Assembly (NCBI GenBank): GCA_964511345.1
Contig: CAZEEV010000003.1
Coordinates: forward strand, 1-41,769
Source of the DNA: an uncultured Pseudomonadales bacterium
Lineage (GTDB): Bacteria > Patescibacteriota > Microgenomatia > UBA1400 > PJMF01
DNA length: 41,769 nt
Direction: 5' to 3'
Positions 2,499 through 33,399 of the stretch are shown here, in pieces (the stretch's first letter is position 1; every line of letters begins with the position of its first letter). Below the pieces are notes generated by a model that saw nothing but the letters and a program-made list of their open reading frames with translations, had not been told where the DNA came from and did not search any database. A program made the position numbers and the translations under genes.

Positions 2499-4352
2499 TT
2501 AGACTTTGAGAAATTGATATAAATCCCCATCTTCAAACCCTCGTTTTCTGTAATATTCTCTCGTGCCAATCGCTGAAATGACCGCTAATTTTTTGTAGCC
2601 AGCTTTTTTACTGAGAACTGCCGCTTTGAGAATGAGTTTTTTACCAAAACCAAAATGCTGAGCTTTCTCCTCACCCTTTTGCCCAATAGATAAACTACGA
2701 CCATAAACATGAATCTCGCGAATCATCGCGGCGCCATCTAGTTCTTCAATCACCTCGTTCTTTTTGGCAATTGGTAAGCTCAAACGCAAGAAAGCTAAAA
2801 TTTTATCACCATAAACAAACTGCAAAAATTTTTCCTGGCTGATGCTGGTTTTGTAATTAGTGATTTTCAGTTTGACTTCTTCTGGTTTGAAAACAGTCGA
2901 GCGGATTTCGCGGGAACGAATGTCCTGCATTTTTTGCTTAGTTTTATTAACGTAAGTTTCGGCGATTTGTCTAAAATTACTTTTAGTATTACCAACTACA
3001 ATGTCTTGAGCGGGAATATCGCGAATCATTCTGGTGATACGACAATAGGCGGGAGTATGAGTAAGAGTGAAAGCCGTGATTTCTAATAATTTTTCGTGAG
3101 TATATGGTTTCCACAAACCTTTTTTGTAATATCTCATCAGTTCCGCTGTTTCGATTAAAGAGCAGGGATAAATTTTTAATTCGTCAGGACAAAAATCTGG
3201 ATCACTAAAAAGTTTTTTAAAATCTCTTTTATCTTTAGCCACACTACCACCATAAAGATTGGCCATAAAATGAATGTGCAATTTGAAACCAGCCTGACGC
3301 AAAAGTACAAAAGCTTTGCGAATTGCGGCGACATCATGGCCACGTTTATTTTTTCTTAAAATTTCATCATCCAAAGATTGAATTCCTAGCTGGACTTTAG
3401 TAGCTCCTAAACGACGAATATTTTTGACACTTTTTGGTGTAATTTCATCTGGTCTGGTTTCAATCACTAAACCCACACAGCGCTGTAGAGCTGTCTCATT
3501 TTTAATTTGTTCTGCTTCTAATTCACTCCACTTAGCTTTTTGATATTCAAGAACTCCCAAAGCATTTTCTGGAGCTAAATAATATTTACTCACTAATTGG
3601 TTATAGGTTTGCGAAATATTTTCACCAGCAATTTGTAGTTTAGCAAAATTAGCTTGGTTTTCTTTAGCATCGGTACTTAAAAAAGTCTTGGTCTGCCATT
3701 TTTTTTCAGTTTCCTTGAATTTTTTTTGAAAAGTTTGGTATTTTTTTATTATTTTTGCTGTGTCATTTTTTGTTTGAAAATCATTCATGGCTCTAAAACA
3801 TTCTTTGACAAACCAAATTTGATAAGCCTCTGGATAAGCCGTCCAAGTTCCACCTAAAATAATTAGTTCAACTTTATCAACTTTGTGACCCATAGAGAAT
3901 AAAGCTTCTAAACGGTTGGTCGTTTGCAAGTATGGATCGAAATAATTTTTTTCTGCGCGTTGCGCACCTGGCTCACTCGCTAAATAACTCTTGGGCATAC
4001 GCAAATCATTAGGACAAAAAATACATTTGCCAGGACAAGGGTAAGGCTTAGTTAAAACCGTCACCGGTGCCACACCGGAGATAGTACGCACTGGTTTGAG
4101 TAAGATTTTTTCAACTAATTTAGGATTGAATTTTTTAAGACCATTGGTGCTAGCTAGTTTTTTGTATTCTTCAATCAACTCAGCATAACCCCAATGAGTA
4201 TTGTCTTCTTTGGGATATTTTTTAATCAAACGCAACAAATCCTCAATCGGCTTATCTAGGTTTTGCTCCAATTCTTTTAGTAAAAAAATAACACTCTTTG
4301 ACATCTGGTGTTTATTATAACGCAAGTCTGACATAAAATAGGCTTGATGCAA
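2499..4352 (-). CDS. elp3: Elp3-type radical-SAM/GNAT tRNA wobble-uridine (cm5U34) modification enzyme
   Basis: RTISGVAPVTVLTKPYPCPGKCIFCPN (radical-SAM Cys cluster). C-terminal GNAT region IREIHVYG...QHFGFGKKL...ISAIGTREYYRKRGF. The longest ORF starts at TTG 4352. ATG 4334 or ATG 4304 are alternatives. 4304 is favoured because a TATAAT lies 9 nt upstream on the minus strand. Confidence 0.85.
   Translation of the reverse strand: MHQAYFMSDLRYNKHQMSKSVIFLLKELEQNLDKPIEDLLRLIKKYPKEDNTHWGYAELIEEYKKLASTNGLKKFNPKLVEKILLKPVRTISGVAPVTVLTKPYPCPGKCIFCPNDLRMPKSYLASEPGAQRAEKNYFDPYLQTTNRLEALFSMGHKVDKVELIILGGTWTAYPEAYQIWFVKECFRAMNDFQTKNDTAKIIKKYQTFQKKFKETEKKWQTKTFLSTDAKENQANFAKLQIAGENISQTYNQLVSKYYLAPENALGVLEYQKAKWSELEAEQIKNETALQRCVGLVIETRPDEITPKSVKNIRRLGATKVQLGIQSLDDEILRKNKRGHDVAAIRKAFVLLRQAGFKLHIHFMANLYGGSVAKDKRDFKKLFSDPDFCPDELKIYPCSLIETAELMRYYKKGLWKPYTHEKLLEITAFTLTHTPAYCRITRMIRDIPAQDIVVGNTKSNFRQIAETYVNKTKQKMQDIRSREIRSTVFKPEEVKLKITNYKTSISQEKFLQFVYGDKILAFLRLSLPIAKKNEVIEELDGAAMIREIHVYGRSLSIGQKGEEKAQHFGFGKKLILKAAVLSKKAGYKKLAVISAIGTREYYRKRGFEDGDLYQFLKV
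4314..4339. promoter_or_regulatory. back-to-back -10 boxes for elp3 (minus) and the Trm9-like gene (plus)
   Basis: Minus-strand TATAAT at 4314-4319, 9 nt before ATG 4304. Plus-strand TAAAAT at 4334-4339, 7 nt before ATG 4347. Confidence 0.4.
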
Positions 4353-5135
4353 AAAGGCTTAATTAAAGCTCTCAATCAACTCAATCAAGATTTTTACGCA
4401 CAAATTAGTGAAGATTTTAGTGCTAGTCGTAATTTTCCTTGGCAAGGTTGGACAGAAATTATTCAATATTTACCCAAACAAAAAAATTTAAAAGTTTTAG
4501 ACGTCGCTTGCGGCAATGGTCGTTTCGTAGAATTTTTAAAGCAAAACTTTCACGATTCTTTTTCTTATTTAGGTTTAGATAATTCTGACAAATTATTAAA
4601 AATCGCCCAAAATAAATTTAAGGAACAGCAATTTGAATTTTTCGATTTGATCAAAAATTATTTAGTAAATGAAAAAATCACCTTCAATACTCGAGAAAAA
4701 TTTGATTTAATTGTTAGCTTTGGACTCAGCCACCATTTACCATCTACCAAACTTAGAGAAGAATTTTTAAAAAGTCTCAAAGATAAATTAAATAAAAATA
4801 GTCTAATCATCATTAGTAATTGGCAGTTCGCCAATGAACAAAATCGCTTTGGGAAAAATACTTTAAATTGGAAAAAAATAATTGAAAACCCAAAAATAAA
4901 TCTGTGGCAAAAAATAAAGTTAATTTTTCTTTTATTAAACTTGGGAAAAAATGATTTTTTAATGGATTGGCGAAAAGGGGATAAAGCCAACCAAGTTTTT
5001 CGCTTTTGCCATTATCTAAGTGACCAAGAAATGACAGAACTCGTTAGAAACAATGGTCTAAAAATAGTAGACAGCTTTTTTGCCGATGGTAAGTCTAAAC
5101 AGCTCAATCAGTATTTTGTACTTAAAGCACTTTGA
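4347..5135 (+). CDS. class I SAM-dependent methyltransferase, Trm9/ALKBH8-methyltransferase-like
   Basis: DFSASRNFPWQGW followed by VLDVACGNGRF (motif I) resembles the Trm9 signature HFSxTRxxPWP...(V/L)D(V/I)GCGNGKY. Divergent from elp3. The ORF track starts at TTG 4344; ATG 4347 is preferred. Confidence 0.6.
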   Translation: MQKGLIKALNQLNQDFYAQISEDFSASRNFPWQGWTEIIQYLPKQKNLKVLDVACGNGRFVEFLKQNFHDSFSYLGLDNSDKLLKIAQNKFKEQQFEFFDLIKNYLVNEKITFNTREKFDLIVSFGLSHHLPSTKLREEFLKSLKDKLNKNSLIIISNWQFANEQNRFGKNTLNWKKIIENPKINLWQKIKLIFLLLNLGKNDFLMDWRKGDKANQVFRFCHYLSDQEMTELVRNNGLKIVDSFFADGKSKQLNQYFVLKAL

Positions 5136-5159
5136 AAAAGCGAAGCTAGAGATTATAAT
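5132..5159 (+). promoter_or_regulatory. sigma70-type promoter for tRNA-Gln
   Basis: TTGAAA (5132-5137), then N16, then TATAAT (5154-5159). The tRNA 5' end is at 5176. Confidence 0.55.
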
Positions 5160-5175
5160 AGTCTTTCTTGCACAT

Positions 5176-5246
5176 TGCCCGATCGTCTAATGGCAGGACA
5201 GAGGCCTTTGAAGCCTTTAATCCTGGTTCGAATCCAGGTCGGGCAT
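5176..5246 (+). tRNA. tRNA-Gln(UUG): tRNA-Gln (anticodon UUG)
   Basis: Hand-folded cloverleaf. Acceptor TGCCCGA/TCGGGCA with the U1-A72 pair typical of bacterial tRNA-Gln. D arm GTCT/GGAC. Anticodon stem GAGGC/GCCTT with loop CTTTGAA. T arm CCTGG-TTCGAAT-CCAGG. CCA is not encoded. Confidence 0.9.
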
Positions 5247-5287
5247 CAAATAAAAAAACTCGCTGATAAGGCGAGTTTTTTTATTTG
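5244..5287 (+). repeat. direct repeat copy 1 (att-like; starts in the last bases of tRNA-Gln)
   Basis: CATCAAATAAAAAAACTCGCTGATAAGGCGAGTTTTTTTATTTG. Copy 2 at 6093-6132 is near-identical, differing only in A/T-tract lengths. Confidence 0.85.
5252..5282 (+). terminator. rho-independent (bidirectional-looking) terminator after tRNA-Gln
   Basis: A-tract, then stem ACTCGC / GCGAGT with loop TGATAAG, then a T7 tract. Confidence 0.7.
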
Positions 5288-5355
5288 CTGTTCATAGCTG
5301 AATTAGAACACTTTAGTTCGCGACGGAAAGTGCGAAGCACCTTCCTAGTACCCGC

Positions 5356-5378
5356 AGGGTGAATCAGAGTCGGGCATC
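5356..5378 (+). other. degenerate tRNA-Gln 3'-end fragment
   Basis: AGGGTGAATCAGAGTCGGGCATCA aligns to the T-arm and acceptor 3' half, GGTTCGAATCCAGGTCGGGCATCA. No matching 5' half is present, so this is not a functional tRNA. Confidence 0.6.
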
Positions 5379-5436
5379 ATTATTCTCTCCCTCAAGTAAT
5401 TTCTCTCAATAAGTAGAACAGTTGGAACTTTTTTTA

Positions 5437-11618: not shown

Positions 11619-12479
11619 TTAAATAAATTCGGCAATAGCTTGACTTAAGTTGATTTCTTTGGGGAATTGTTCTATTAAAGTTTTTTCTTTTAATTGAGGA
11701 ACTTCTTTGTGGTAAGCGAGACGTTGGTCATTACGATACAGAACTCCTAAACCTAGTTTTTCCTGATTTAGCAATTCCACTAAAGCGTTAGCTTGATTAC
11801 TTGGTTCATATTTTTCATCTAAATCAAAAATATTGTTTTGATACCAGGAATAGTCCTGTTCTTTATTGAAACTCGGGCAAGGCTGCAAAACATCAATCAG
11901 AGAAAAACCTTCATATAAAATTCCAGCCTTAATCAAGGCCACCATTTGCTTGAGTTTGCCAGCATAGGCTCTAGCAACAAAACCAGCCCCATTACTTACC
12001 GCCGTACTCAAAGCAGCAATTGGATCTTCGATTAATCCCTGTGGAGTGGATTTACTAATCGTTCCCTTGGCGGAAGTAGGAGAACTTTGACCAGTAGTTA
12101 AACTATAGCGGTGATTGTTAAAAACTAGAGTAGTGATGTCATGGTTTCCACGACAAGCCGCCACTAAATGGTTAAAGCCTTCACCATAAATGTCCCCATC
12201 ACCACCAATCATGATCACTTTTTGACGATGGTTAGCCAATTTGATACCGATCGCATTGGCCAAGCCTCGCCCATGCAGCGCATGCAGGCCAAAACATTTG
12301 ATAAAGTCTGCCGTGTTGCCACTACAGCCAATACCGAACACAATCGTTACTTCCTCCATTGATAAGTTAAGCTCAACCAAAGCCTGTTTCAAAGCCGTTA
12401 AAATGCTAAAATTGCCACAACCAGGACACCAAGTTGGTTGAACTGGCGACATTAATTTTTCTAAACTAATTTTGTTCAT
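11619..12479 (-). CDS. 2-oxoacid:ferredoxin oxidoreductase, beta (TPP-binding) subunit
   Basis: WCPGCGNFSIL, GIGCSG, IGGDGDIYGEG (TPP GDG motif). There is a 4-nt overlap with the alpha subunit gene. Confidence 0.85.
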   Translation of the reverse strand: MNKISLEKLMSPVQPTWCPGCGNFSILTALKQALVELNLSMEEVTIVFGIGCSGNTADFIKCFGLHALHGRGLANAIGIKLANHRQKVIMIGGDGDIYGEGFNHLVAACRGNHDITTLVFNNHRYSLTTGQSSPTSAKGTISKSTPQGLIEDPIAALSTAVSNGAGFVARAYAGKLKQMVALIKAGILYEGFSLIDVLQPCPSFNKEQDYSWYQNNIFDLDEKYEPSNQANALVELLNQEKLGLGVLYRNDQRLAYHKEVPQLKEKTLIEQFPKEINLSQAIAEFI

Positions 12480-14284
12480 ATTAACTTATATTGTTGATCT
12501 AATTGCTTGGTTTTCAAAAAATCTATTAGGTCTTCACTATAAAAAGGTCGACCATCATAACGCAAAATTGAGCGCAGATTTTGTAACTTAGTTTCTCTCC
12601 TAATTAAAGCCGCCAACTGCCCGGTAGAATTACCTTCTACTACAAAGGTCTCAGCAGTTTTTCCTGCCAATAAAGTTTCTAGTTCTTCGCTTGGGAACGG
12701 ATAAATACAAGGTAAATGAATTACGGCAATATTTTTAGCTGCATCATCAAGTAAAACATCTCTTAAAACATTAATTGTCGAACCAAAAGAAATAAAGATT
12801 TGTTGTGGATTTTTGGCACCTAAATAAAGTGGCTTGGGTAAATCTTGCTTCAAGGCAGTTAACTTAGCTGCTCTTTTTTCCACTGCTTTTTTAGTTTCTT
12901 TAGCATCTTCAGTGGCAAAACCATATTCATCATGCTCATAAGAATTACTTAATTGCAATGCATTATTTTGTCCTGGAATAGAGCGGGAAGAAATGCCGTT
13001 TTCAGTAATGCTGTAGCGTAAATACTCACCCTCTTTCAAACTGTTTTCACCAAGTTGACCATCATTCACCATCGATAAGCGAGAATTTTTTAAATCCATC
13101 ACCATCTTAGGCATGCTCTGCAAAGATTCCAAAATATATTTGTCAGACATAATTAGAACTGGCAATTGATATTTCTCAGCCAATTCCACTGCCAATTTAG
13201 CTAAAATAAAATGTTCGCGCACATCACCAGGAGTAAAAACTACTCGCAAGAATTCACCGTGACCAGCTCCCAAAACAAAATTTAAATCTCCCTGCGAAGT
13301 CCAGGTTGGAAGACCAGTCGCCGGACCTTGTCTGGTTGCCTCCACTACCACTAAAGGAATTTCAGCAACGCCAGCAAAAGACAAAGACTCCACCATAAGT
13401 GCAAAACCTCCACCGGAGCTGCCAGTCATTGCTCTTACGCCAGCAAAGCTTGCTCCAATAGCATGATTTATCGCTCCAATTTCATCTTCAGCATGCTTAA
13501 CTACAATTGGATATTGATCTTGCAAACTTGCTAAATAATGTAGAACACCAGTTGCTGGAGTCATCGGGTAGGCAGAGTAGAACTGCAAACCAGCAGCTAA
13601 AGCACCAAGTCCAATAGCTTCATTGCCACTTAATAAAATTTGTTCGTCTAAACCAGTATTAATTAATTTACCAAGAGATTTTAATTCGCTTTGCTTTAGT
13701 AATTGCTGAGTCATTTCATAGGCTGCTTTGAGCACTGCTAAATTTTGCACTGCTGCATTTTTATTTTTAGCAAATTCTTCCACCACCACTTTACTCATAG
13801 TTTGCAGGTCCATGTCAAATAAGGCCGCACTCAAACCCAAAGCAGCAATGTTAGCTGCCAAGGGGTGAGCACCTTGATCTCGAGCAATTTTAGTTAAATT
13901 AACAGCGAAAACCTTAGATTTAAGATCTGAATACTTACTGACATCAAAAGCATTGGCATTGAGGATTACTAAAGAGTTCTCGTCTAATTCAGACAAATGC
14001 TCGGTGATAAATTTTTCATGAAAAACAATCAATAGATCTAAACGGCGACGATGGCAGCTCGTTCCTTGCAGAGAAGCAACCACTTGGCCACTCTGTAAAC
14101 CACCTTTGATTAAAGAAGGATATTCGTAATAATTAAAAACCGCTAAACCTTGTCTCTTACAAGCTTTGGCAAAGAGTTTGGCACTCACCATCACTCCTTC
14201 ACCAGCCTTAGCAGAAATCTTCCAATTAATACTTTCTAAATCCATAGGTGTAAACATTGTAGGAGAAGTATGCCCAATGGTCAA
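12476..14284 (-). CDS. 2-oxoacid:ferredoxin oxidoreductase, fused gamma-alpha subunit
   Basis: N-terminal gamma-like domain (KISAKAGEGVMVSAKLFAKA). Alpha domain motifs YPMTPATG and GGGFALM. The longest ORF uses TTG 14284. ATG 14257 or ATG 14245 are alternative starts. Confidence 0.85.
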   Translation of the reverse strand: MTIGHTSPTMFTPMDLESINWKISAKAGEGVMVSAKLFAKACKRQGLAVFNYYEYPSLIKGGLQSGQVVASLQGTSCHRRRLDLLIVFHEKFITEHLSELDENSLVILNANAFDVSKYSDLKSKVFAVNLTKIARDQGAHPLAANIAALGLSAALFDMDLQTMSKVVVEEFAKNKNAAVQNLAVLKAAYEMTQQLLKQSELKSLGKLINTGLDEQILLSGNEAIGLGALAAGLQFYSAYPMTPATGVLHYLASLQDQYPIVVKHAEDEIGAINHAIGASFAGVRAMTGSSGGGFALMVESLSFAGVAEIPLVVVEATRQGPATGLPTWTSQGDLNFVLGAGHGEFLRVVFTPGDVREHFILAKLAVELAEKYQLPVLIMSDKYILESLQSMPKMVMDLKNSRLSMVNDGQLGENSLKEGEYLRYSITENGISSRSIPGQNNALQLSNSYEHDEYGFATEDAKETKKAVEKRAAKLTALKQDLPKPLYLGAKNPQQIFISFGSTINVLRDVLLDDAAKNIAVIHLPCIYPFPSEELETLLAGKTAETFVVEGNSTGQLAALIRRETKLQNLRSILRYDGRPFYSEDLIDFLKTKQLDQQYKLI

Positions 14285-14307
14285 ATCGCAAGAGCAATGT
14301 TAGTTCA

Positions 14308-14316
14308 TGTTACAAT
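14308..14316 (+). promoter_or_regulatory. extended -10 promoter (TGTTACAAT) 9 nt before ATG 14326
   Basis: TGnTACAAT in the 41-bp divergent intergenic region. Confidence 0.45.
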
Positions 14317-14325
14317 TTAAATATT

Positions 14326-14784
14326 ATGGCAAATACTTTACTCATTTACGGAAGTTTAACTGGCAATACTGAAGGTATAGCTTATAAATTACAAGAATTT
14401 TGCAAAACCAAGGGCAAAGAAGTAGAAGTTAAAAATGCTCTTGATGCCGATATAGCTGATTTACAAGGTGCTTATAGTACTTTTATTTTTGCTTCTTCTA
14501 CTTGGGACGATGGTTTACCACAGGCTGATTTTGCAGATTTTATTGAAAGAGTTAATAAAAATCAGCTGAGTTTAGCTGGCAAAAAAATTGCTATTCTTGG
14601 TTGCGGCGATAGTAACTACGTACATTTTTGCGGCGCTACGGAGATCATTGAAAAGGTTTTTGTTACTGAAATGGGAGGCAATAAAATCACAGAAAACTTG
14701 CGTATTGATGGATATCCAGAAACTGAAGAAAACCAAGCCCTTCTTAATCATTGGATGGAAAAAGTGGTCACACTTATTGACTAA
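14326..14784 (+). CDS. short-chain flavodoxin
   Basis: LLIYGSLTGNTEGIA (FMN phosphate-binding loop), STWDDG, GCGDSNY. Confidence 0.85.
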   Translation: MANTLLIYGSLTGNTEGIAYKLQEFCKTKGKEVEVKNALDADIADLQGAYSTFIFASSTWDDGLPQADFADFIERVNKNQLSLAGKKIAILGCGDSNYVHFCGATEIIEKVFVTEMGGNKITENLRIDGYPETEENQALLNHWMEKVVTLID

Positions 14785-19928: not shown

Positions 19929-20006
<78 letters not shown>

Positions 20007-20034
20007 ATTTTTTAATTCCAAACAAACAAAAAAG

Positions 20035-20108
20035 TATGCTGGGTGGGATTCGAACCCACGACCTACTGCTTAGAAGGCAGTTGCTCTATCCAGCTGAGCT
20101 ACCAGCAC
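20035..20108 (-). tRNA. tRNA-Arg(UCU): tRNA-Arg (anticodon UCU)
   Basis: Reverse complement GTGCTGGTAGCTCAGCTGGATAGAGCAACTGCCTTCTAAGCAGTAGGTCGTGGGTTCGAATCCCACCCAGCATA. Anticodon loop CTTCTAA. G1-U72 wobble pair. CCA is not encoded. Confidence 0.88.
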
Positions 20109-25304: not shown

Positions 25305-27326
25305 ATGTTGGCTTCTTATTTACGCAAAATAGCAAAAATTAGTTGTTTAGTTGTAAGTTTTTTCAGTTTATTTTTTGCTTCAGCAAGAGACTCTTTAGCT
25401 CAAAGTGGTGTCGAAAATTTTGACATTTCGCTACACAGTACTTATACCATCACTGCCACCGGCAAAGCTTTGGTTGAACAAAAATTCACTATCAAAAATA
25501 AAACCCCAGAACTCTTTGTTAGCAAATATGGCATTGTCGTTAGTTCCACTAATTTGGAAAATATCGCCATCACTCATAATGGTAAAAAGCTAGAACACTC
25601 TATTACCAAACAAAAAGGTCAAACCTCTATTGGTGTGACTTTCGAAGATAAAATCGTGGGCGAGAATAAAACTAACGAGCTTGTGATCAGCTACACTGAC
25701 CAAGACATTGCTCTAATTAGTGGCAAAATTTTGGAAATTAATATTCCTCAACTGGCTGACCATGATCAGTATCAAACTTATCAGCTAGAATTGCGCGTGC
25801 CAAGTATTTTTGACACCCCAAGTCGCATTAATCCCAATAATTTCAGTTTAAAACAAGAGGGAGATTACAATGTTATTACTTACAGCGATCTCGAAAACCA
25901 GTCAGTCTCTGCTATTTTCGGCAATAAACAAGTTTTTGAATTAAAACTCAATTATTATTTGAATAATCCCACCAGTCAAAGTGCCTTGACTCAAATTACT
26001 CTGCCACCAGAAACGCCTTATCAAAAAGTGTACTACTTCAACCTCGATCCAATGCCTAAAAATATCAAGGAAGATGCTGACGGTAACTTTATCGCTACCT
26101 ATGAAATCCCAGCTAATAATTCTTTCAATGTCGAGCTACTGGCACAAGTTTTATTAACTTTATCAGCTGATCCATTAGTACCTTTTAGTTCTGTTCTGCC
26201 AGAACATCTGCAAGAACAAAAATTCTGGGAAGTTGATCAATTTCCTATTATTGAATTAGCTAAAAATTTGCACAACCCCAAAGATATATCTAATTTTGTA
26301 GTCGAAAAACTTACTTATACTAATCAACCTCTAAATCAAGATTTCGTGCGTTTGGGTGCTCTTGGTGCCATCAAAGAAGAAAATTCAAGCAATGCTACCT
26401 GCCAAGAGTTCACTGATCTTTTTGTGACTCTAGCTAGACAAAATAGAATTCCTACTCGCAGAGTAGTGGGCATTGCTTATTCTAATAACGAAGAATTGCG
26501 CCCTAGTAATTTAAATAGCGATATTTTACATACCTGGCCAGAATACTACGATCAAGAACAGCAAGCTTGGCTTAGAATCGATCCAACTTGGGAAGACACC
26601 ACGGGTGGCATCGATTATTTTAATAATTTTGATCTTAACCATATTGCTTTGGCTATCAACGGTGTTTCTAGCTCGTTGCCATATTCAGCCGGGTCTTATT
26701 CTGGTGAGCTTGATGAAAAAAATAAAAAAATTTTTCTAGATTTTTCCAAAGAAAATCTGCCCACAATCAATCCTGAATTTGAAATTAATTTAGTCAATAA
26801 AAAGATTTATGGCTTAAATATACCAGGCAATTATGAGGTGCAAATTTTAAATAAAACCGGCATGGTTTGGTACTTTAAGGAGATTAAGATTGATGGAGAA
26901 AAAGTAGATATTAATATCAACCAAGATCAGGAAATTCAAAAAATCCTGCCATTTGCTAAAATAGTCCTTCCTATCACCGTTTATAATAGAGATGGTAACC
27001 TACAATATCAAACAAAAATTAAAGTTGCTACTGTTCTAAAAGAAGGACAAATCACTAATCATGAGTTCACAGTCAACACTAGCCTCCAATTCAAAATTGC
27101 CAATCCGCAAAAAGCCATTCTTGTGGGAAGCGGTCTTATCATCTTTGCCATCGCTACCTGGAGTTTATTCTTTCTTGGACGAAAACTCGCAAATTCTTTA
27201 CGTAGGCAAGGCCAAAAACTTGAAGAAAAGGATCACCAGCTACAAGCGATCTCCACTGCTCTCAAAGAAAATCAAGAAAATGACGGAGTTGGCAAGAAAA
27301 GTAGAGTATCAAGTTCTCGAAAGTGA
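25305..27326 (+). CDS. secreted, C-terminally TM-anchored transglutaminase-like (papain-fold) protein with intact Cys-His-Asp triad
   Basis: Signal peptide ISCLVVSFFSLFFASARDSLA. NATCQEFTDLFVTLARQNRIPTRRVVG (Cys366), LHTWPEYY (His409), RIDPTWED (Asp426). C-terminal TM AILVGSGLIIFAIATWSLFFLG followed by a basic tail. Confidence 0.75.
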   Translation: MLASYLRKIAKISCLVVSFFSLFFASARDSLAQSGVENFDISLHSTYTITATGKALVEQKFTIKNKTPELFVSKYGIVVSSTNLENIAITHNGKKLEHSITKQKGQTSIGVTFEDKIVGENKTNELVISYTDQDIALISGKILEINIPQLADHDQYQTYQLELRVPSIFDTPSRINPNNFSLKQEGDYNVITYSDLENQSVSAIFGNKQVFELKLNYYLNNPTSQSALTQITLPPETPYQKVYYFNLDPMPKNIKEDADGNFIATYEIPANNSFNVELLAQVLLTLSADPLVPFSSVLPEHLQEQKFWEVDQFPIIELAKNLHNPKDISNFVVEKLTYTNQPLNQDFVRLGALGAIKEENSSNATCQEFTDLFVTLARQNRIPTRRVVGIAYSNNEELRPSNLNSDILHTWPEYYDQEQQAWLRIDPTWEDTTGGIDYFNNFDLNHIALAINGVSSSLPYSAGSYSGELDEKNKKIFLDFSKENLPTINPEFEINLVNKKIYGLNIPGNYEVQILNKTGMVWYFKEIKIDGEKVDININQDQEIQKILPFAKIVLPITVYNRDGNLQYQTKIKVATVLKEGQITNHEFTVNTSLQFKIANPQKAILVGSGLIIFAIATWSLFFLGRKLANSLRRQGQKLEEKDHQLQAISTALKENQENDGVGKKSRVSSSRK

Positions 27327-28431
27327 AATTGAAGCCTTACTAATCGAGGCAGAACTAATCAAAGCTCATCAGCCATATTTTAATAGTCTACTCAAAGATG
27401 ATAAATCTAACATTTATCTTCTAATCACTAATGAGAATTTTCCAAGGATTCTGCGTGTTCGCAGAACTGATTTAAATAAAAAAATCTATCAAAACAAATT
27501 GACTCTCTTTGGACCATTTACCAGTGCTTTTAAGTTGGCAGAACTTTTGAAAATTATTCGCCCCATTTTTAAGTGGTGCAACCAAGCCAATGGCACTAAA
27601 CCAAAAACTTGCTTTTATCATCATCTCGACCTATGTTCTGGCGCTTGTTGCCATGAAATAAACGCCTTAGAGTATCGAAAAGATATCGACCAATTAATCT
27701 TATTTCTCAAAGGACGAAAAAAAGATTTGTTGAAAAAGCTGAAAAAAGAGATGACAACATTAGCTGACACGGAAGCTTTTGAAAAAGCTTTAATCATAAA
27801 AAATAAAATTCAATTAATTGAAGAAATTACCAATCACAAATATAAATTAAAAACTGATCTTATTTTGCCAAATTTTTCTCAAGAAGAAAACCAAGAAGCC
27901 TTGGTACATCTCAGGCACATTTTGCATCAAGAAGGCATAGTTGATGTCAAACAGCAATTTCAGCGTATTGAAGGTTATGACGTTAGTAATACTTCTGGAC
28001 AAAACGCTACTGTTTCCATGGTAGTTTTAACCAATGGTGAAATAGACCAGAGTCAATATAAATTTTTCAAAATTCGCTCTCTAAGCACTCCTAATGATTA
28101 CGGCATGTTGCAAGAAGCCTTAACTCGCAGACAAAAGCACTTAGAGTGGGGTAGTCCTGACCTTGTTTTGATTGATGGTGGTAAAGGACAGGTTAGAGCA
28201 GTAGCAAAAGTTTGGAAGAACCAAACTCCACTAATTGGCTTAGTGAAAAATCCAGACAGATTGGTCGTTCTTATTCCAGAAAAAAATCAAGGACATGGTT
28301 TAGAAACAAAAATTATCCCTCTCCAAGCAAATCATCCTACTCTTAAAATGCTACAAAGATTACGTGATGAAGCCCATCGCTTTGCCAAAAAACAACACTC
28401 TCGACTTAGAACCAAAAATCTTTTACAATGA
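27061..28431 (+). CDS. uvrC: excinuclease ABC subunit C, short form lacking the C-terminal (HhH)2 domain
   Basis: GIY-YIG (PGVYSFLDENSQILYVGKAKNLKKRITSY). UVR domain (LKKLKKEMTTLADTEAFEKALIIKNKIQLIEEI). Endonuclease domain (RIEGYDVSN...LIDGGKGQV...RLRDEAHRFA). Ends 13 aa after DEAHRFA. Overlaps the upstream ORF by 266 nt in another frame. Confidence 0.88.
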   Translation: MSSQSTLASNSKLPIRKKPFLWEAVLSSLPSLPGVYSFLDENSQILYVGKAKNLKKRITSYKRSPLLSKKIKKMTELARKVEYQVLESEIEALLIEAELIKAHQPYFNSLLKDDKSNIYLLITNENFPRILRVRRTDLNKKIYQNKLTLFGPFTSAFKLAELLKIIRPIFKWCNQANGTKPKTCFYHHLDLCSGACCHEINALEYRKDIDQLILFLKGRKKDLLKKLKKEMTTLADTEAFEKALIIKNKIQLIEEITNHKYKLKTDLILPNFSQEENQEALVHLRHILHQEGIVDVKQQFQRIEGYDVSNTSGQNATVSMVVLTNGEIDQSQYKFFKIRSLSTPNDYGMLQEALTRRQKHLEWGSPDLVLIDGGKGQVRAVAKVWKNQTPLIGLVKNPDRLVVLIPEKNQGHGLETKIIPLQANHPTLKMLQRLRDEAHRFAKKQHSRLRTKNLLQ

Positions 28432-28831: not shown

Positions 28832-29848
28832 ATGAAAATCACTAAACCTGCCGTTATTGTATTTTTTCTATTTCAATTTTTTACCAGTGCCTTGATCAGC
28901 GGAAATTTGGTACAGGCTCAATTAGCTCCAGCCAAAAGTGCTAGTATTCCTGCCGTTACTGTTACCAATGAAGCCACTATGGCAGCAGAGGCTACAGATA
29001 GCGCCAAACTTTCCTCGCCCTCAGCCGAGGTTGTCGAGAAATTGCAACAAAAAACTGATCAAGATATTACTGAAACCAGTGGTCAAAAGAAAAGTGTCCT
29101 AGCTGCTTATTTAGATGAGCACCCAGTTGGTAAATTGAGCTGGCACAACTTTTTGCAAAAAGCGATTCGCAAATCTATCGCTAGCGGCATGCCTGCTAAC
29201 ATTATTGTGATTCTATTGATTTTTCCAATCATCGCCTCTCTCGTGGCTTTTTCTAGACATGTAGTTGGTTTGAAAGGTTTTGGTATTTATATTCCTGCCG
29301 TTTTGTCAGTCGCTTTTGTTTCCACTGGCATTGTGCCAGGAATAGTGGTGTTTTTGGCAGTTTTATTAACTGCCTTGTTTACTAGACCAATTCTCAAAAA
29401 ATTTAGACTACCTATTTTACCCAGAACAGCCATGTTACTGATGGGCGTCTCTGTAGCCATATTAGCACTGATGTTGATTGGCTCTATTTACAGCATTGAT
29501 TTGGTGATCGATATTAGTATTTTCCCTCTGTTAATTATTATTCTTTTGACTGAAAATTTTATGGAAACACAACTTTTTAATAGTCAAAAAGAAGCTTTAC
29601 AAATCACTTTTGAAACCTTACTGATTGCCGTACTTTGTTCACTTATTATTGGTTCTGAACCAATTCAAAAATTCGTGATTTTACGACCAGAAATGACTCT
29701 CATTGGTGTGGCTTTAATTAATCTCGCCATCGGCAAATATACCGGATTACGTTTTCTAGAATATCTAAGATTTAAAGACTTGTTAGATCCTAAAACTAAA
29801 TTCAAAGAAAGCTCCTCAGAAAATAATTCGCAAGAAGAAGAGGAATAA
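28832..29848 (+). CDS. 7-TM membrane protein of the 7TM_transglut type, with acidic C-terminal tail -SQEEEE
   Basis: Signal-like N-terminus, about 120-aa exposed segment, then about 7 helices. Motifs SRHVVGLKGFGIYIPAVLSVAF and IGKYTGLRFLEYLRF match my memory of the 7TM module usually fused to an inactive transglutaminase. Confidence 0.6.
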   Translation: MKITKPAVIVFFLFQFFTSALISGNLVQAQLAPAKSASIPAVTVTNEATMAAEATDSAKLSSPSAEVVEKLQQKTDQDITETSGQKKSVLAAYLDEHPVGKLSWHNFLQKAIRKSIASGMPANIIVILLIFPIIASLVAFSRHVVGLKGFGIYIPAVLSVAFVSTGIVPGIVVFLAVLLTALFTRPILKKFRLPILPRTAMLLMGVSVAILALMLIGSIYSIDLVIDISIFPLLIIILLTENFMETQLFNSQKEALQITFETLLIAVLCSLIIGSEPIQKFVILRPEMTLIGVALINLAIGKYTGLRFLEYLRFKDLLDPKTKFKESSSENNSQEEEE

Positions 29849-29853
29849 AACTC

Positions 29854-31140
29854 ATGTTTGTGAATAAAGCTAAAGACCTCTTGGGGATTAACGCACGCAA
29901 TTCGCTGTATTTGAGTCGTAGCTCAAATAAAGTAAAAGCTATTGTGCGTTCCAAATATGCCACGAAAATTTTACTAAGAGACAATAATATTGCTACTGCC
30001 GAAATCTATGGCATTCTTGGCACCCATGAAGATATTACTGATTTCAATTGGCAAAATTTAGTTAAAAATTTTGTGATTAAACCAACTAATGGTTATGCTG
30101 GCACTGGTGTTGTAGCTTTCAGAGAAAAAGTTACTGAAGATACCTGGATTGATATGCTCGGCAATAAATGGAATTTGGCTGACATCAAATTACATTGTGA
30201 CGATATTTTATCAGGACAATATAGCATCCACGGACTCAATCACAATGTAATCATTGAAGAAAGAATTCCTATTCATCCTAAATTATTGAAGTATTCATAC
30301 AAAGGCACTCCAGACATCAGAGTGGTAGTTTTTAATAGCGTACCAGTGATGGCCATGCTGCGTTTACCAACTGAAGAGTCGGGTGGTCGCGCCAATGTAA
30401 CTCAAGGAGCTTTGGCTGTCGGTATAGATATTGCTACAGGTATTACCACTCATGCTGTCGCTCACAAAAGTGAACCTATTAATTATCTCCCCGGAACTAA
30501 AAAAAAGTTAAACGGCATCATTATTCCAGAATGGAACTCTATCTTGGAAACTGCAGTTATCGCTAGTAATGCCGCTGAACTTTATTTTGCTGGAGTTGAC
30601 CTTTTTATTCACAAAGACAAAGGACCCATGGTGGTTGAAATTAATGCTGCTCCGGGATTATCTATTCAGGCAGCCAATCGTGCTGGATTACGCAGAAGAT
30701 TGGAAAGAGTAGAAGATTTAAATATTCAAAATCCTAAACACGGAGTAAAAGTAGCTCAGGCACTATTTGCCAGTGATTTTGCCTCTAAAATAAAAAACAA
30801 GGCAGATTTTCCAATTGTCGGTTTATATGAAGAAATTGTTGTTTGGGGAGACAATAAACAAAAAATGGAAACGATTGCTTTTCTTAATACCGGACGCTTT
30901 AGTAGTGCTATTGCCAAAAAGCTAGCTCAGGAGCTAGGTTTAATCGATGTTGATGATTTATTATGGTTTCAATCTGAACAAGAAGAAGGTAAAGTACCAG
31001 TGGTTGAAGTAAAATTCAAGTTGAAAGAAAAAATTGTTAAAACGACCATGATCGTGAGTAACAAGTTAAATAATAAAAAACAAAAAATTGAAATTGGACG
31101 CAAAGATTTAAAGAACTTTGTGATTCGTTTTGATGAATAA
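29854..31140 (+). CDS. RimK-related ATP-grasp ligase (alpha-L-glutamate ligase-like / ATPgrasp_ST) fused to a degenerate retropepsin-like (RimB/Zn_protease-type) C-terminal domain
   Basis: GINARNSLYL, FVIKPTNGYAGTGV, PDIRVVVFNSVPVMAMLRLPTEESGGRANVTQGALAVGIDIATG, VVEINAAPGLSIQAANRAGLRRRLE. The C-terminal 110 aa has IVGLYEEIVV...IAFLNTGRFSSAI...IEIGRKDLKNFVIRFD. Confidence 0.75.
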   Translation: MFVNKAKDLLGINARNSLYLSRSSNKVKAIVRSKYATKILLRDNNIATAEIYGILGTHEDITDFNWQNLVKNFVIKPTNGYAGTGVVAFREKVTEDTWIDMLGNKWNLADIKLHCDDILSGQYSIHGLNHNVIIEERIPIHPKLLKYSYKGTPDIRVVVFNSVPVMAMLRLPTEESGGRANVTQGALAVGIDIATGITTHAVAHKSEPINYLPGTKKKLNGIIIPEWNSILETAVIASNAAELYFAGVDLFIHKDKGPMVVEINAAPGLSIQAANRAGLRRRLERVEDLNIQNPKHGVKVAQALFASDFASKIKNKADFPIVGLYEEIVVWGDNKQKMETIAFLNTGRFSSAIAKKLAQELGLIDVDDLLWFQSEQEEGKVPVVEVKFKLKEKIVKTTMIVSNKLNNKKQKIEIGRKDLKNFVIRFDE

Positions 31141-31150
31141 GAAATAAAAC

Positions 31151-32116
31151 ATGGCCAAACTCAGCGATCTTATCCCAATTAATCTCGATGAAGAAAAAGC
31201 CAAATTTTTTACTGCTAACTTTGACTATAATCCTCAATTTGTTTATCAAAATAATATTTTGAAAACGGACTTGGAAAAATATGGTAAACCAAAATGGTGG
31301 TATCTATTTCTAGCCAAAAGAATTCTCAATCAGTACTTAAAAAATCAAACAACCGCTCAAACTGCAAATAGTACTAACGAGTTTATTGAACAAAATGTCA
31401 TCGAAGAAAAAATCAAACAAAGATTAGACTATTACGACCTAGCAAATCAATACGAAATTATTTTTTCAAAAAATTTTATTAGTCGCATTGCTATTAATAA
31501 CAGCAAAAAAAATATCAAAATACGTCTGCCCATTAAAATAAATTCAAATGAAATTGAGGCTACTCTCAATCATGAAATTGAGACACACATTTTAAGACAG
31601 CTTAACTATGAGCAGCAACCATGGTTTAGAAAGAAGAAAAAATACGGTTTTAAGCCATACCTGCGCACCGAAGAGGGTTTGGCTGTGATCAACGAATTAA
31701 TTGTTAGCGATAATCAACTCGCTTACAAATCCGCCATGAATTATTTAGCAGTTAATCTTGCTTTGAAAAGTGATTTTAAAACTGTCTTTAATTTTTTTCA
31801 CCAAATCAATCATAATCCTGAACGAGCTTGGACTTGGACTCTAAAAAAGAAAAGAGGTTTAACTGATACTAAACAAAAAGGCGCCTTTACCAAGGATTTA
31901 GTCTACTTTGAAGGATTAATCGAAGTTTTAAACTACCTTAAAAAAAATCAATATGATGCCACTAAACTCTATTATGGGAAAATAAGTGTGAATGATATTA
32001 AAAAAGCTGAAAAAATTGGAGTAAACAAACAACTGATTTTACCCAAATTTTTAACTGAAAATACCAAAGAATATATCAGTGCACTCAAAGAATTACGCAG
32101 TTGCAATTTGCTCTAA
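31151..32116 (+). CDS. DUF1704 / QEGLA-motif family metallopeptidase (MATCAP-like, HExxxH)
   Basis: HEIETH (res 141-146), QQPW, LRTEEGLAVINE (res 171-182). This arrangement is characteristic of DUF1704, the family containing the eukaryotic tyrosine carboxypeptidase MATCAP/KIAA0895L. Confidence 0.7.
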   Translation: MAKLSDLIPINLDEEKAKFFTANFDYNPQFVYQNNILKTDLEKYGKPKWWYLFLAKRILNQYLKNQTTAQTANSTNEFIEQNVIEEKIKQRLDYYDLANQYEIIFSKNFISRIAINNSKKNIKIRLPIKINSNEIEATLNHEIETHILRQLNYEQQPWFRKKKKYGFKPYLRTEEGLAVINELIVSDNQLAYKSAMNYLAVNLALKSDFKTVFNFFHQINHNPERAWTWTLKKKRGLTDTKQKGAFTKDLVYFEGLIEVLNYLKKNQYDATKLYYGKISVNDIKKAEKIGVNKQLILPKFLTENTKEYISALKELRSCNLL

Positions 32117-32118
32117 AA

Positions 32119-33399
32119 TTACGGTGCTTCGATTTCTGCGTACACTGCCTGCTCGACCCACTGCACAAGTTGCTCGTACTCATTTCTGTCGTCACAAGCA
32201 ATAATAAATTCCGCCAAAGCATGACCACCATTTTTAGCCTGATAACAAAACTGTTGCGGCTTAGCAAATAATTTGTACATCACTACTTGTGATTGGGTAA
32301 TTAATTCGTTCCATCCATGCAATTTGACTAGACGCCCCGATTTATCTGGATAAATACTATAAGCTGCGACATACTTCTTTAAGATGTTTGGGATAGTTGG
32401 GGAAAGACCAAGATGAATTTTAATGTCATTATAAGAATGATCTATGTCGTAACCATAAAAATACATATTTTGTCTAAAACGACCAATTCTAGGACCAAGT
32501 TCAATAATTTTCCAGCCACTGCTAGTTAAGATCATTTCAATGTGTGCTGTAGAATTGCGCAAGCCCACTGCTTGAATAGCTTTGCTAGCTGCTAGCTGAC
32601 CAGCCTTAATTTGTTCCTCATTTAATTTGGTCGGTAGAAAGCGTTTGTAAAGAAAAAAATCATCAATACCTAACTGTTTGGCTGGAATATAAGCAATAAG
32701 TGGACAAAAATAAGTAGTTCCAATTGAATCTGTGTAAGTATCGATTGAATAAAAATCTCCTTCCAAGTATTCTTCCACAATGACCTGGGGGGATTCTAAG
32801 CGTTCTTCTTGACAATAAATTTCATTAATTTTGGTAAACGTATCTTGTAAAGAGGTCGTCAGCTCATCAATGTCAAAGCAAGATTGAATCAATAAACTAG
32901 AAGCTAACTGAGCTGGTTTAATAATGACCGGAAATTTTAATTTATTGGTAATCGCAGCGATTGAATTGGCAGAAGCATCGCTCACTTCGATAAACTGAGG
33001 AGTAATCTCCGGATAAAGATTGGTGAAGGCCGTACGCATCATTTTTTTATTAGTACTCACTTCCAAAGCATTTGAGTCAGCTATTAATATGTCTTTTGGC
33101 AAGTAAGGAATCACACGACGCAAATACTGTATTTGTTTATCACCTCTGCAAATCACGCCAACTATTTGATCTCTGTATTTAGACAGAGCTCCAATTATTG
33201 CCTCTTGGTTTGAAAAGTCACATATCAATATATCAGCTAATTGTGTTACATACTCTTGATCAATCTGTTTGTTGGACTCGCTAGTAATTAATAAAAGTTC
33301 AGTGTTTGCATAATCAGCATATTCTTTTTTTAATTTATCTAATGCTGGAAAGATGCTATTGGCTAAATGATCAATGATTAATAAGTATTTTTTCGACAT
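32119..33399 (-). CDS. ATP-grasp enzyme, L-amino-acid-ligase / carboxylate-amine ligase-like
   Basis: 426 aa. A pre-ATP-grasp Rossmann-like N-domain, then KFPVIIKPAQLASSLLI, VIVEEYLEGDFYSIDTY, STAHIEMILTSSGWKIIELGPRIGR. Confidence 0.7.
   Translation of the reverse strand: MSKKYLLIIDHLANSIFPALDKLKKEYADYANTELLLITSESNKQIDQEYVTQLADILICDFSNQEAIIGALSKYRDQIVGVICRGDKQIQYLRRVIPYLPKDILIADSNALEVSTNKKMMRTAFTNLYPEITPQFIEVSDASANSIAAITNKLKFPVIIKPAQLASSLLIQSCFDIDELTTSLQDTFTKINEIYCQEERLESPQVIVEEYLEGDFYSIDTYTDSIGTTYFCPLIAYIPAKQLGIDDFFLYKRFLPTKLNEEQIKAGQLAASKAIQAVGLRNSTAHIEMILTSSGWKIIELGPRIGRFRQNMYFYGYDIDHSYNDIKIHLGLSPTIPNILKKYVAAYSIYPDKSGRLVKLHGWNELITQSQVVMYKLFAKPQQFCYQAKNGGHALAEFIIACDDRNEYEQLVQWVEQAVYAEIEAP

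Follow-up and report, generated by a model that had tools for sequence, protein, structure and literature searches.

The Elp3-to-Trm9 pathway, which acts on uridine 34 (U34) of transfer RNA (tRNA), is established in eukaryotes. Synthesis of 5-carboxymethyluridine (cm5U) has been shown for archaeal Elp3, and both eukaryotic and archaeal Trm9 need Trm112. The Elp3 and Trm9 genes cluster in Sulfolobus (Sulfolobus solfataricus) (PMC2584109), and formation of 5-methoxycarbonylmethyluridine (mcm5U) by Trm9-Trm112 of Haloferax volcanii has been demonstrated both in vivo and in vitro (PMC6144793). According to a 2017 review, bacteria have no detectable relatives of the methyltransferases that depend on Trm112, Trm9 among them (PMC5372719); a 2020 review described bacterial Elp3 as confined to Dehalococcoides (PMC7663514), and a 2026 paper reported Elp3 in 'numerous bacteria' without mention of a partner. 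In this study, we analyzed a contig of 41,769 nucleotides from an uncultured bacterium (GenBank assembly GCA_964511345.1, CAZEEV010000003.1; GTDB lineage Patescibacteriota, Microgenomatia, UBA1400, PJMF01), the whole of which is called the window here, and focused on two head-to-head genes encoding an Elp3 and a predicted Trm9-type class I methyltransferase that uses S-adenosylmethionine (SAM). We consider this pair a bacterial member of the known pathway and not a new kind of system. A preliminary description of the window, made from its letters alone, knew of no described bacterial Elp3-Trm9 pair, and our search of the full-text literature likewise found none, the structure paper on the Elp3 of Dehalococcoides mccartyi (DmcElp3; PMC5018218) lying outside its coverage.

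The active-site residues of the methyltransferase are the most telling evidence for its assignment to the Trm9 type. For Saccharomyces cerevisiae Trm9 (ScTrm9), Létoquart et al. (PMC4678810) identified R29, D72, H116, W145, W168, R241, Y243 and N271 by mutagenesis as required for activity, and mutating R29, D72, H116, W145, W168, R241 or N271 abolished or strongly lowered it. In their model, the cm5U carboxylate is surrounded by Y18, R29, H115/H116 and R241, with N271, H115 and W145 at the uracil ring. Residue alignments were made of the window protein with homologues from other Patescibacteria, Chloroflexota, Myxococcota, Coriobacteriia and Dehalococcoidia and with fungal Trm9. Seven of the eight essential residues were invariant in the bacterial and fungal alignments, namely R28, D78, H130, W159, W208, R219 and N254 of the window protein (equivalent to ScTrm9 R29, D72, H116, W145, W168, R241 and N271, respectively), and so was H129 (H115), Dehalococcoidia included. 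Y17 (Y18) was invariant except in Dehalococcoidia, which have Phe there, and H222 was invariant in the bacterial/fungal alignment; of the three Dehalococcoidia proteins, two have R or Y at this position. The N-terminal motif Y...FS-x-(T/S)-R-x-x-(P)-W was present, its Y17, F24, R28 and W32 showing no variation among 23 bacterial and 6 fungal sequences, and the methyltransferase motif I, D52-VA-CGNG, was likewise invariant. D78 matches the acidic residue that closes beta2 in class I enzymes of the Trm9 type, and the H129-H130 dyad follows beta4.

Compared with eukaryotic Trm9-Trm112 and the methyltransferase domain of ALKBH8, the bacterial enzyme has the same class I fold and a similar functional tie to Elp3, and shares the motifs Y..FS.(T/S)R..(P)W, DxGCGNG, HH, W, D..(V)PW and the C-terminal N, as well as RY(Y)H with variation at the positions of Y243 and H222. 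Unlike eukaryotic Trm9, the bacterial methyltransferases lack the N-terminal extension and carry a helical insertion of 20–35 amino acids (aa) after the W159 strand, between W159 and D203, which fungal Trm9 does not have; further differences are a Cys at the Y243 position of the window protein, the lack of an evident Trm112 and the head-to-head position of the gene with that of Elp3.

Similarity searches pointed in the same direction. Pfam placed the methyltransferase in class I (Methyltransf_31, _23, _25 and _11, with a generic "UbiE-like" match). As a single sequence, its top sequence relative in the PDB was Trm9 of Yarrowia lipolytica (5cm2_Z, E = 1.8e-7), and a profile of 23 homologues again ranked 5cm2_Z first (E = 8.7e-19, 70.9 bits), ahead of the next match at 8e-15 and 57.9 bits. 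Profile-profile comparison by hhalign with 14 fungal Trm9 sequences aligned 203 columns that included both termini (probability 99.85%, E = 7.5e-31). Sequence identity to eukaryotic Trm9 is only about 20–24%. The AlphaFold2 model was confident (predicted local distance difference test score of 92.9), and in a Foldseek search with it against the PDB, 5cm2_Z came second by E-value (2.6e-15) and first by target TM-score (0.80) and by identity; this supports the assignment only weakly because hundreds of class I enzymes match. The family is large, with 2,543 representative clusters (50% identity) matching the profile at E <= 1e-30, and some automatic annotations by the Joint Genome Institute label members 'TRM9', so the homology has not gone wholly unseen before. 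These data support a Trm9-type methyltransferase, with Trm9 as its closest characterized relative rather than UbiE or another non-tRNA family.

The minus-strand protein is unambiguously an Elp3 by family membership. It scored 481.8 bits against NCBIfam TIGR01211 (ELP3; cut-off 350), covering model positions 50–517 of 522, and its best PDB relatives were the Elp3 proteins of Methanocaldococcus infernus (MinElp3, E = 6.5e-103) and D. mccartyi (E = 1.1e-95), both aligned in two stretches on either side of an insertion. The radical-SAM cysteines C106, C110 and C113 (CPGKCIFC, CX3CX2C; CX4CX2C in archaeal MinElp3) are intact and invariant across 12 bacterial homologues, as are Q565, H566 and G570; the acetyl-CoA motif QHFGFGKKL of the GNAT domain aligns with QHMGYGRML of MinElp3. 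The window Elp3 is thus predicted from its family to be a radical-SAM plus GNAT synthase that carboxymethylates tRNA U34. The preliminary description had read the two genes as a full-length Elp3 with these two motifs and a divergent class I methyltransferase whose N-terminal part resembles Trm9. The first reading was borne out by the TIGR01211 match, the PDB relatives and the motif alignment and the second by the open reading frame (ORF) scan and Pfam; the resemblance is real according to the PDB searches, the alignments and hhalign, and when Trm9 is set against UbiE and other families, the evidence favours Trm9.

The pairing of the two genes is conserved far beyond this contig. A scan with the methyltransferase profile, using one genome per GTDB species, yielded 80 loci, of which 74 were assessable and 6 too short. 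They came from Patescibacteria labelled Pacebacteria, Woesebacteria, Dojkabacteria, Saccharibacteria and WWE3 and from Chloroflexota (Anaerolineae, Caldilineae), Myxococcota, Acidobacteriota and Coriobacteriia, about six phyla overall. Elp3, detected by tblastn with the window protein, lay within the 10-kb flank in 57 of the 74 assessable loci: directly upstream and divergent in 43, with gaps of −5 to 360 bp, and 0.5–5 kb away in the other 14, of which 13 were divergent. In the reverse scan, an Elp3 alignment was searched against metagenome contigs, and among the 80 loci obtained (9 short of upstream sequence, leaving 71 assessable) the methyltransferase was found by the family hidden Markov model in 58, always divergent and upstream. 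Since the adjacency recurs in most homologous loci, it is far beyond chance. When all ORFs within 7 kb in 80 loci were clustered, no third conserved gene emerged, no other family occurring in more than 9 loci, and where the pair is split the intervening genes are heterogeneous. Only the methyltransferase and Elp3 recur among the neighbours, which points to a two-gene module. These observations support a functional coupling of the methyltransferase to Elp3. The adjacency is therefore conserved in both directions and across phyla, and Elp3 is more widespread among bacteria than the earlier remark ('only sporadic') suggests.

In several loci from Chloroflexota, a small membrane protein (110–138 aa, starting approximately 'M..LKRI.VGSAFRVG') is encoded between the two genes or next to them (instances in Table 1).

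The pair also occurs in D. mccartyi. The DmcElp3 sequence was rebuilt from its PDB alignment and matched to database entry P0241, with its locus in D. mccartyi CP019867.1. There, a class I methyltransferase of 224 aa is encoded 43 bp upstream of Elp3 in divergent orientation; it has matches to fungal Trm9 (E = 3e-19) as well as to the bacterial family (E = 7e-22) and carries FHH, VWN, VPW, RYY and the C-terminal Asn. Two further Dehalococcoidia contigs showed the identical arrangement. Therefore, the model organism of bacterial Elp3 has the same partner. DmcElp3 (PDB 5L7J, the crystallized bacterial Elp3) belongs to the same family as the window Elp3 and likewise has a divergent Trm9-like partner, but it is a short form of 459 aa with neither an N-terminal extension nor an insertion and with the zinc motif present, the window Elp3 being the opposite in each respect; the D. 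mccartyi methyltransferase represents a more divergent branch without the 20–35-aa insertion. In Dehalococcoidia, the pair adjoins queH (epoxyqueuosine reductase, an anticodon modification gene) and a GNAT acetyltransferase gene (L161 3140-5957, L162, L164).

Taken together, we consider it probable, with good confidence, that the two proteins form a self-contained two-enzyme module in which Elp3 makes cm5U34 and the Trm9-type methyltransferase turns it into mcm5U34. In such a module, Elp3 would cleave SAM at its [4Fe-4S] cluster to yield a 5'-deoxyadenosyl radical, and its GNAT domain would take the acetyl group from acetyl-CoA, so that a carboxymethyl group would be placed on C5 of U34 to give cm5U; this step is attributed to Elp3 because of its family membership. 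The methyltransferase, with SAM, would then methyl-esterify the cm5U carboxylate to give mcm5U, as suggested by the conservation of both its Trm9 active-site residues and its gene linkage to Elp3. With the additional action of a 2-thiolase, for example MnmA, the product would be 5-methoxycarbonylmethyl-2-thiouridine (mcm5s2U). The mcm5U-type two-gene module put forward in the preliminary description is thus supported by the family assignment and the conserved adjacency. For the broader proposal that an autonomous Elp3-Trm9 cassette in at least six phyla installs mcm5U or mcm5U-type modifications without the Elongator accessory subunits or Trm112, we lean only slightly towards acceptance; among the phyla concerned are Patescibacteria, Chloroflexota (to which Dehalococcoides belongs), Myxococcota, Acidobacteriota and the gut Coriobacteriia.

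Several points weigh against an Elp3-Trm9 module that makes mcm5U. The Pfam and NCBIfam libraries give the methyltransferase generic class I matches only, too unspecific to assign its family, the top Foldseek match is 1y8c, an uncharacterized methyltransferase, and not Trm9, and the position of ScTrm9 Y243 holds Cys221 in the window protein, with C, Y, V or L elsewhere in the family. Seventeen of the 74 assessable methyltransferase loci have no Elp3 within 10 kb. A Pfam analysis of the window ORFs, and tblastn of 164 related loci with approximate E. coli YcaR and yeast Trm112 sequences, revealed no significant match to a Trm112-like gene (PF03966 or YcaR-like). According to the 2020 review, cm5U-type (xcm5U) species have never been reported in bacteria, and direct evidence for them in Elp3-bearing bacteria is lacking (PMC7663514). 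This last point, together with the variable Y243 position, the insertion between W159 and D203 and the extra insertion of 80 aa in many paired Elp3s, would also fit a methyltransferase that acts with Elp3 on tRNA to give an end product other than mcm5U, with another side chain, another atom or a further derivative. We regard such a product as improbable, since every residue assigned by the model to holding the cm5U carboxylate or the uracil ring is invariant and the catalytic motifs of Elp3 are canonical.

It is very unlikely that the protein is an ordinary small-molecule or protein methyltransferase of the UbiE/UbiG kind whose adjacency to Elp3 has no functional meaning. The generic class I and weak UbiE/UbiG library matches, the name 'Menaquinone biosynthesis methyltransferase UbiE' given by NCBI to one homologue and the hundreds of PDB enzymes sharing the class I fold would be compatible with it. 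However, the NCBIfam matches to UbiE, UbiG, BioC and CmoB are all far under the curated cut-offs, the best UbiE-type scores being 41.3 bits against a cut-off of 216 (NF001244) and 36.8 against 158 (TIGR01934); Trm9 is the best characterized relative, with its specific residues invariant; and the divergent adjacency to Elp3 persists in about 80% of loci in distant phyla while all other neighbours change. An identity as a UbiE/MenG quinone methyltransferase was rejected, as the curated equivalog cut-offs were not reached. That the enzyme instead methylates a carboxylate of Elp3 or another protein, in the manner of LCMT-1, and so regulates Elp3, appears exceedingly unlikely. A tight genetic linkage would suit a regulator and its target, and the active site of Trm9 does resemble that of the protein carboxyl methyltransferase LCMT-1 (PMC4678810), but N254, H129 and W159, modelled as readers of the uracil ring, are invariant, and methylation regulating Elp3 has no known precedent.

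Given the lack of a linked Trm112 gene, this activator may be dispensable for the bacterial enzyme; Trm112 independence is put forward here as a hypothesis only. Concerning other U34 pathways, no MnmE or MnmG was detected in the window or the related loci by library scans and tblastn with approximate E. coli sequences, and no CmoM-like match was obtained within the window. MnmE/MnmG (with MnmC), the usual bacterial route to xm5U34, has the same target, C5 of U34, and its enzyme families and side chains are unrelated to those proposed here. CmoM, which makes the methyl ester of uridine 5-oxyacetic acid (cmo5U34), analogously esterifies a side-chain carboxyl of U34, but its family and side chain are unrelated to those of the window methyltransferase. 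Three metagenome loci have homologues of MnmA, the tRNA 2-thiouridine34 synthase, at most about 6 kb away from Elp3 (L086 8-907, L149 12784-13620, L153 8117-8950); this is about the chance frequency and fits an mcm5s2U end product.

The layout of the junction was also considered. The maximal ORF of the methyltransferase, 4344-5135 (plus strand, 263 aa), and that of Elp3 overlap by 9 bp; from the ATG at 4347, the methyltransferase has 262 aa and is identical to database protein P0001. The Elp3 start is likely the ATG at 4334, giving 611 aa and leaving about 12 bp to the methyltransferase ATG, because a conserved N-terminal motif, R/F-x-(P)-E/K-x-H/Y, which aligns with 'RYN-KHQ' of the window Elp3, sits upstream of Met17. 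The spacing of 42 bp given earlier assumed a start at the third in-frame Met (4304) and should be replaced by this shorter distance. The window has a G+C content of 36%, and its nearest genome is the complete 853-kb CP011212.1 (locus L001), with an Elp3 92% identical and a methyltransferase 81% identical. The junction is 100% identical to that genome at the DNA level (L001 9957-10034) and the adjacent coding sequence has substitutions, which suggests that the start regions and the promoters impose overlapping constraints. A promoter scan found no consensus sigma-70 site in the junction. The head-to-head genes and the very short, strongly conserved junction suggest co-ordinate expression.

The paired Elp3s differ in architecture. 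Relative to archaeal Elp3, the window protein has about 80 extra residues (aa 196–276), placed exactly between residues 143 and 144 of MinElp3, and lacks the Zn-binding CxCxxC linker motif, with DIRSREIRS where MinElp3 has CRCIRCREV. Eukaryotic Elp3 also lacks the Zn-binding cysteine motif (PMC6367351), so this motif is not definitive for the whole family. When 12 paired bacterial Elp3s were aligned, the insertion and the absence of the Zn motif coincided in eight of the nine insertion-bearing proteins, the window protein included, and in the ninth (L059) the insertion was only partial; the remaining three (L053, L070 and L075) were short, had the Zn motif and resembled the D. mccartyi enzyme. 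Thus, paired Elp3s occur in two forms, one with a Lys-rich insertion of about 80 aa containing a conserved YNQxV and no Zn-cysteines, the other short with CxCIRC; in the window protein, the regions that distinguish them are aa 196–276 and about 470–485. Extra tRNA binding is one possible role of the insertion.

The archaeal enzymes provide another close comparison. Haloferax volcanii (HVO_2888 and HVO_1032) likewise has a stand-alone Elp3, without Elp1, 2, 4, 5 or 6, plus a Trm9 orthologue. The archaeal Elp3 and Trm9 genes are clustered in at least one lineage, whereas the bacterial pair is divergent and far more consistently linked. In addition, archaeal Trm9 needs Trm112 in vivo, and archaeal Elp3 has the Zn-cysteines, which the window Elp3 lacks while carrying the 80-aa insertion.

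Two tRNA genes noted in the preliminary description were recovered, tRNA-Gln(UUG) just after the methyltransferase gene with a promoter of its own, and tRNA-Arg(UCU) elsewhere in the window (Table 1). Its own promoter and the downstream hairpin with a T-run, probably a bidirectional terminator, indicate that tRNA-Gln is a separate transcription unit. tRNA-Gln(UUG) lies 0.2–3 kb downstream of the methyltransferase in nine Patescibacteria loci of one subclade and in no other phylum. Because it is near the pair in this lineage only, the proximity is not evidence of a functional link, and tRNA-Gln was rejected as a part of the module; tRNA-Arg(UCU) is not linked to the module. As both are U34 tRNAs, they are plausible candidate substrates by prediction. 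The last 19 nucleotides (nt) of tRNA-Gln (5230-5248) are repeated imperfectly (16/19) at 5361-5379, 131 bp downstream, and this repeat may be the remnant attachment site of a formerly integrated element.

Table 1. Features of the Elp3-methyltransferase locus, the tRNA genes of the window and the small membrane protein genes of related loci (window coordinates unless a locus is named).
Feature	Position	Strand	Details
Elp3	2499-4352	minus	maximal ORF of 617 aa (ORF scan); TIGR01211, PDB relatives, conserved residues
Trm9-type class I SAM methyltransferase, predicted tRNA cm5U34 carboxyl methyltransferase	4347-5135	plus	262 aa
Divergent junction with both start regions	4303-4380		presumably shared control region
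tRNA-Gln promoter, sigma-70 type	5132-5159	plus	TTGAAA-16 nt-TATAAT; 11/12 positions; overlaps the methyltransferase stop codon
tRNA-Gln(UUG)	5176-5247	plus	ARAGORN; Rfam tRNA 62.1 bits; 40 nt after the methyltransferase stop
Hairpin, 20-nt arms flanked by A and T runs	5244-5290		repeat finder; missed by a simple terminator scan
tRNA-Arg(UCU)	20034-20108	minus	ARAGORN
tRNA-His(GUG)	with tRNA-Arg(UCU) within 19929-20108	minus	ARAGORN
Small membrane protein	L014 9510-9926		
Small membrane protein	L048 9529-9930		
Small membrane protein	L065 9496-9912		
Small membrane protein	L118 3053-3454		
Small membrane protein	L032 8527-8859		
Small membrane protein	L116 4668-5000		

Other regions of the window deserve mention in their own right. 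A Gp49/HigB-like toxin (PF05973) and an HTH_3 antitoxin are encoded at 1912-2497, between a MazG-like gene and the 3' end of Elp3; as MazG abuts Elp3 directly in CP011212.1, the toxin-antitoxin pair appears to have been inserted recently, as a segment of about 640 bp. At 11619-14784, the alpha/gamma and beta genes of pyruvate:ferredoxin oxidoreductase adjoin a flavodoxin gene, unlinked to the module; radical-SAM enzymes, of which Elp3 is one, usually receive their electrons from flavodoxin. At 25305-27326 and 27061-28431, a transglutaminase-core protein is inserted in the uvrA-uvrB-uvrC series, and its ORF overlaps the maximal uvrC ORF by about 266 bp, so that the uvrC start is probably further downstream. 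The region 28832-33399 encodes a seven-transmembrane inactive-transglutaminase protein, a 'sugar-transfer associated' ATP-grasp protein, a MATCAP/DUF1704-type peptidase and a second ATP-grasp ligase, and looks like a peptide-ligation or peptide-modification system.

Our findings contradict the reviews on bacterial Elp3 and Trm9, as bacterial Elp3 almost always has a Trm9-type partner, in distant phyla and in D. mccartyi itself. The pairing predicts mcm5U in bacterial tRNA, and this prediction is testable in cultivable carriers. If the autonomous cassette proposed for at least six phyla is real, bacteria would have in the xcm5U pathway a third widespread means of modifying U34, beside MnmEG and Cmo; it might replace MnmEG in reduced genomes, and the bacterial enzyme would be the first Trm9 active on its own. 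The pair is also a compact two-protein system for reconstituting the conversion of cm5U to mcm5U and may provide a Trm112-independent Trm9 for structural work. Further, it bears on the age of the Elp3/Trm9 route, and on its possible spread by transfer, relative to MnmEG.

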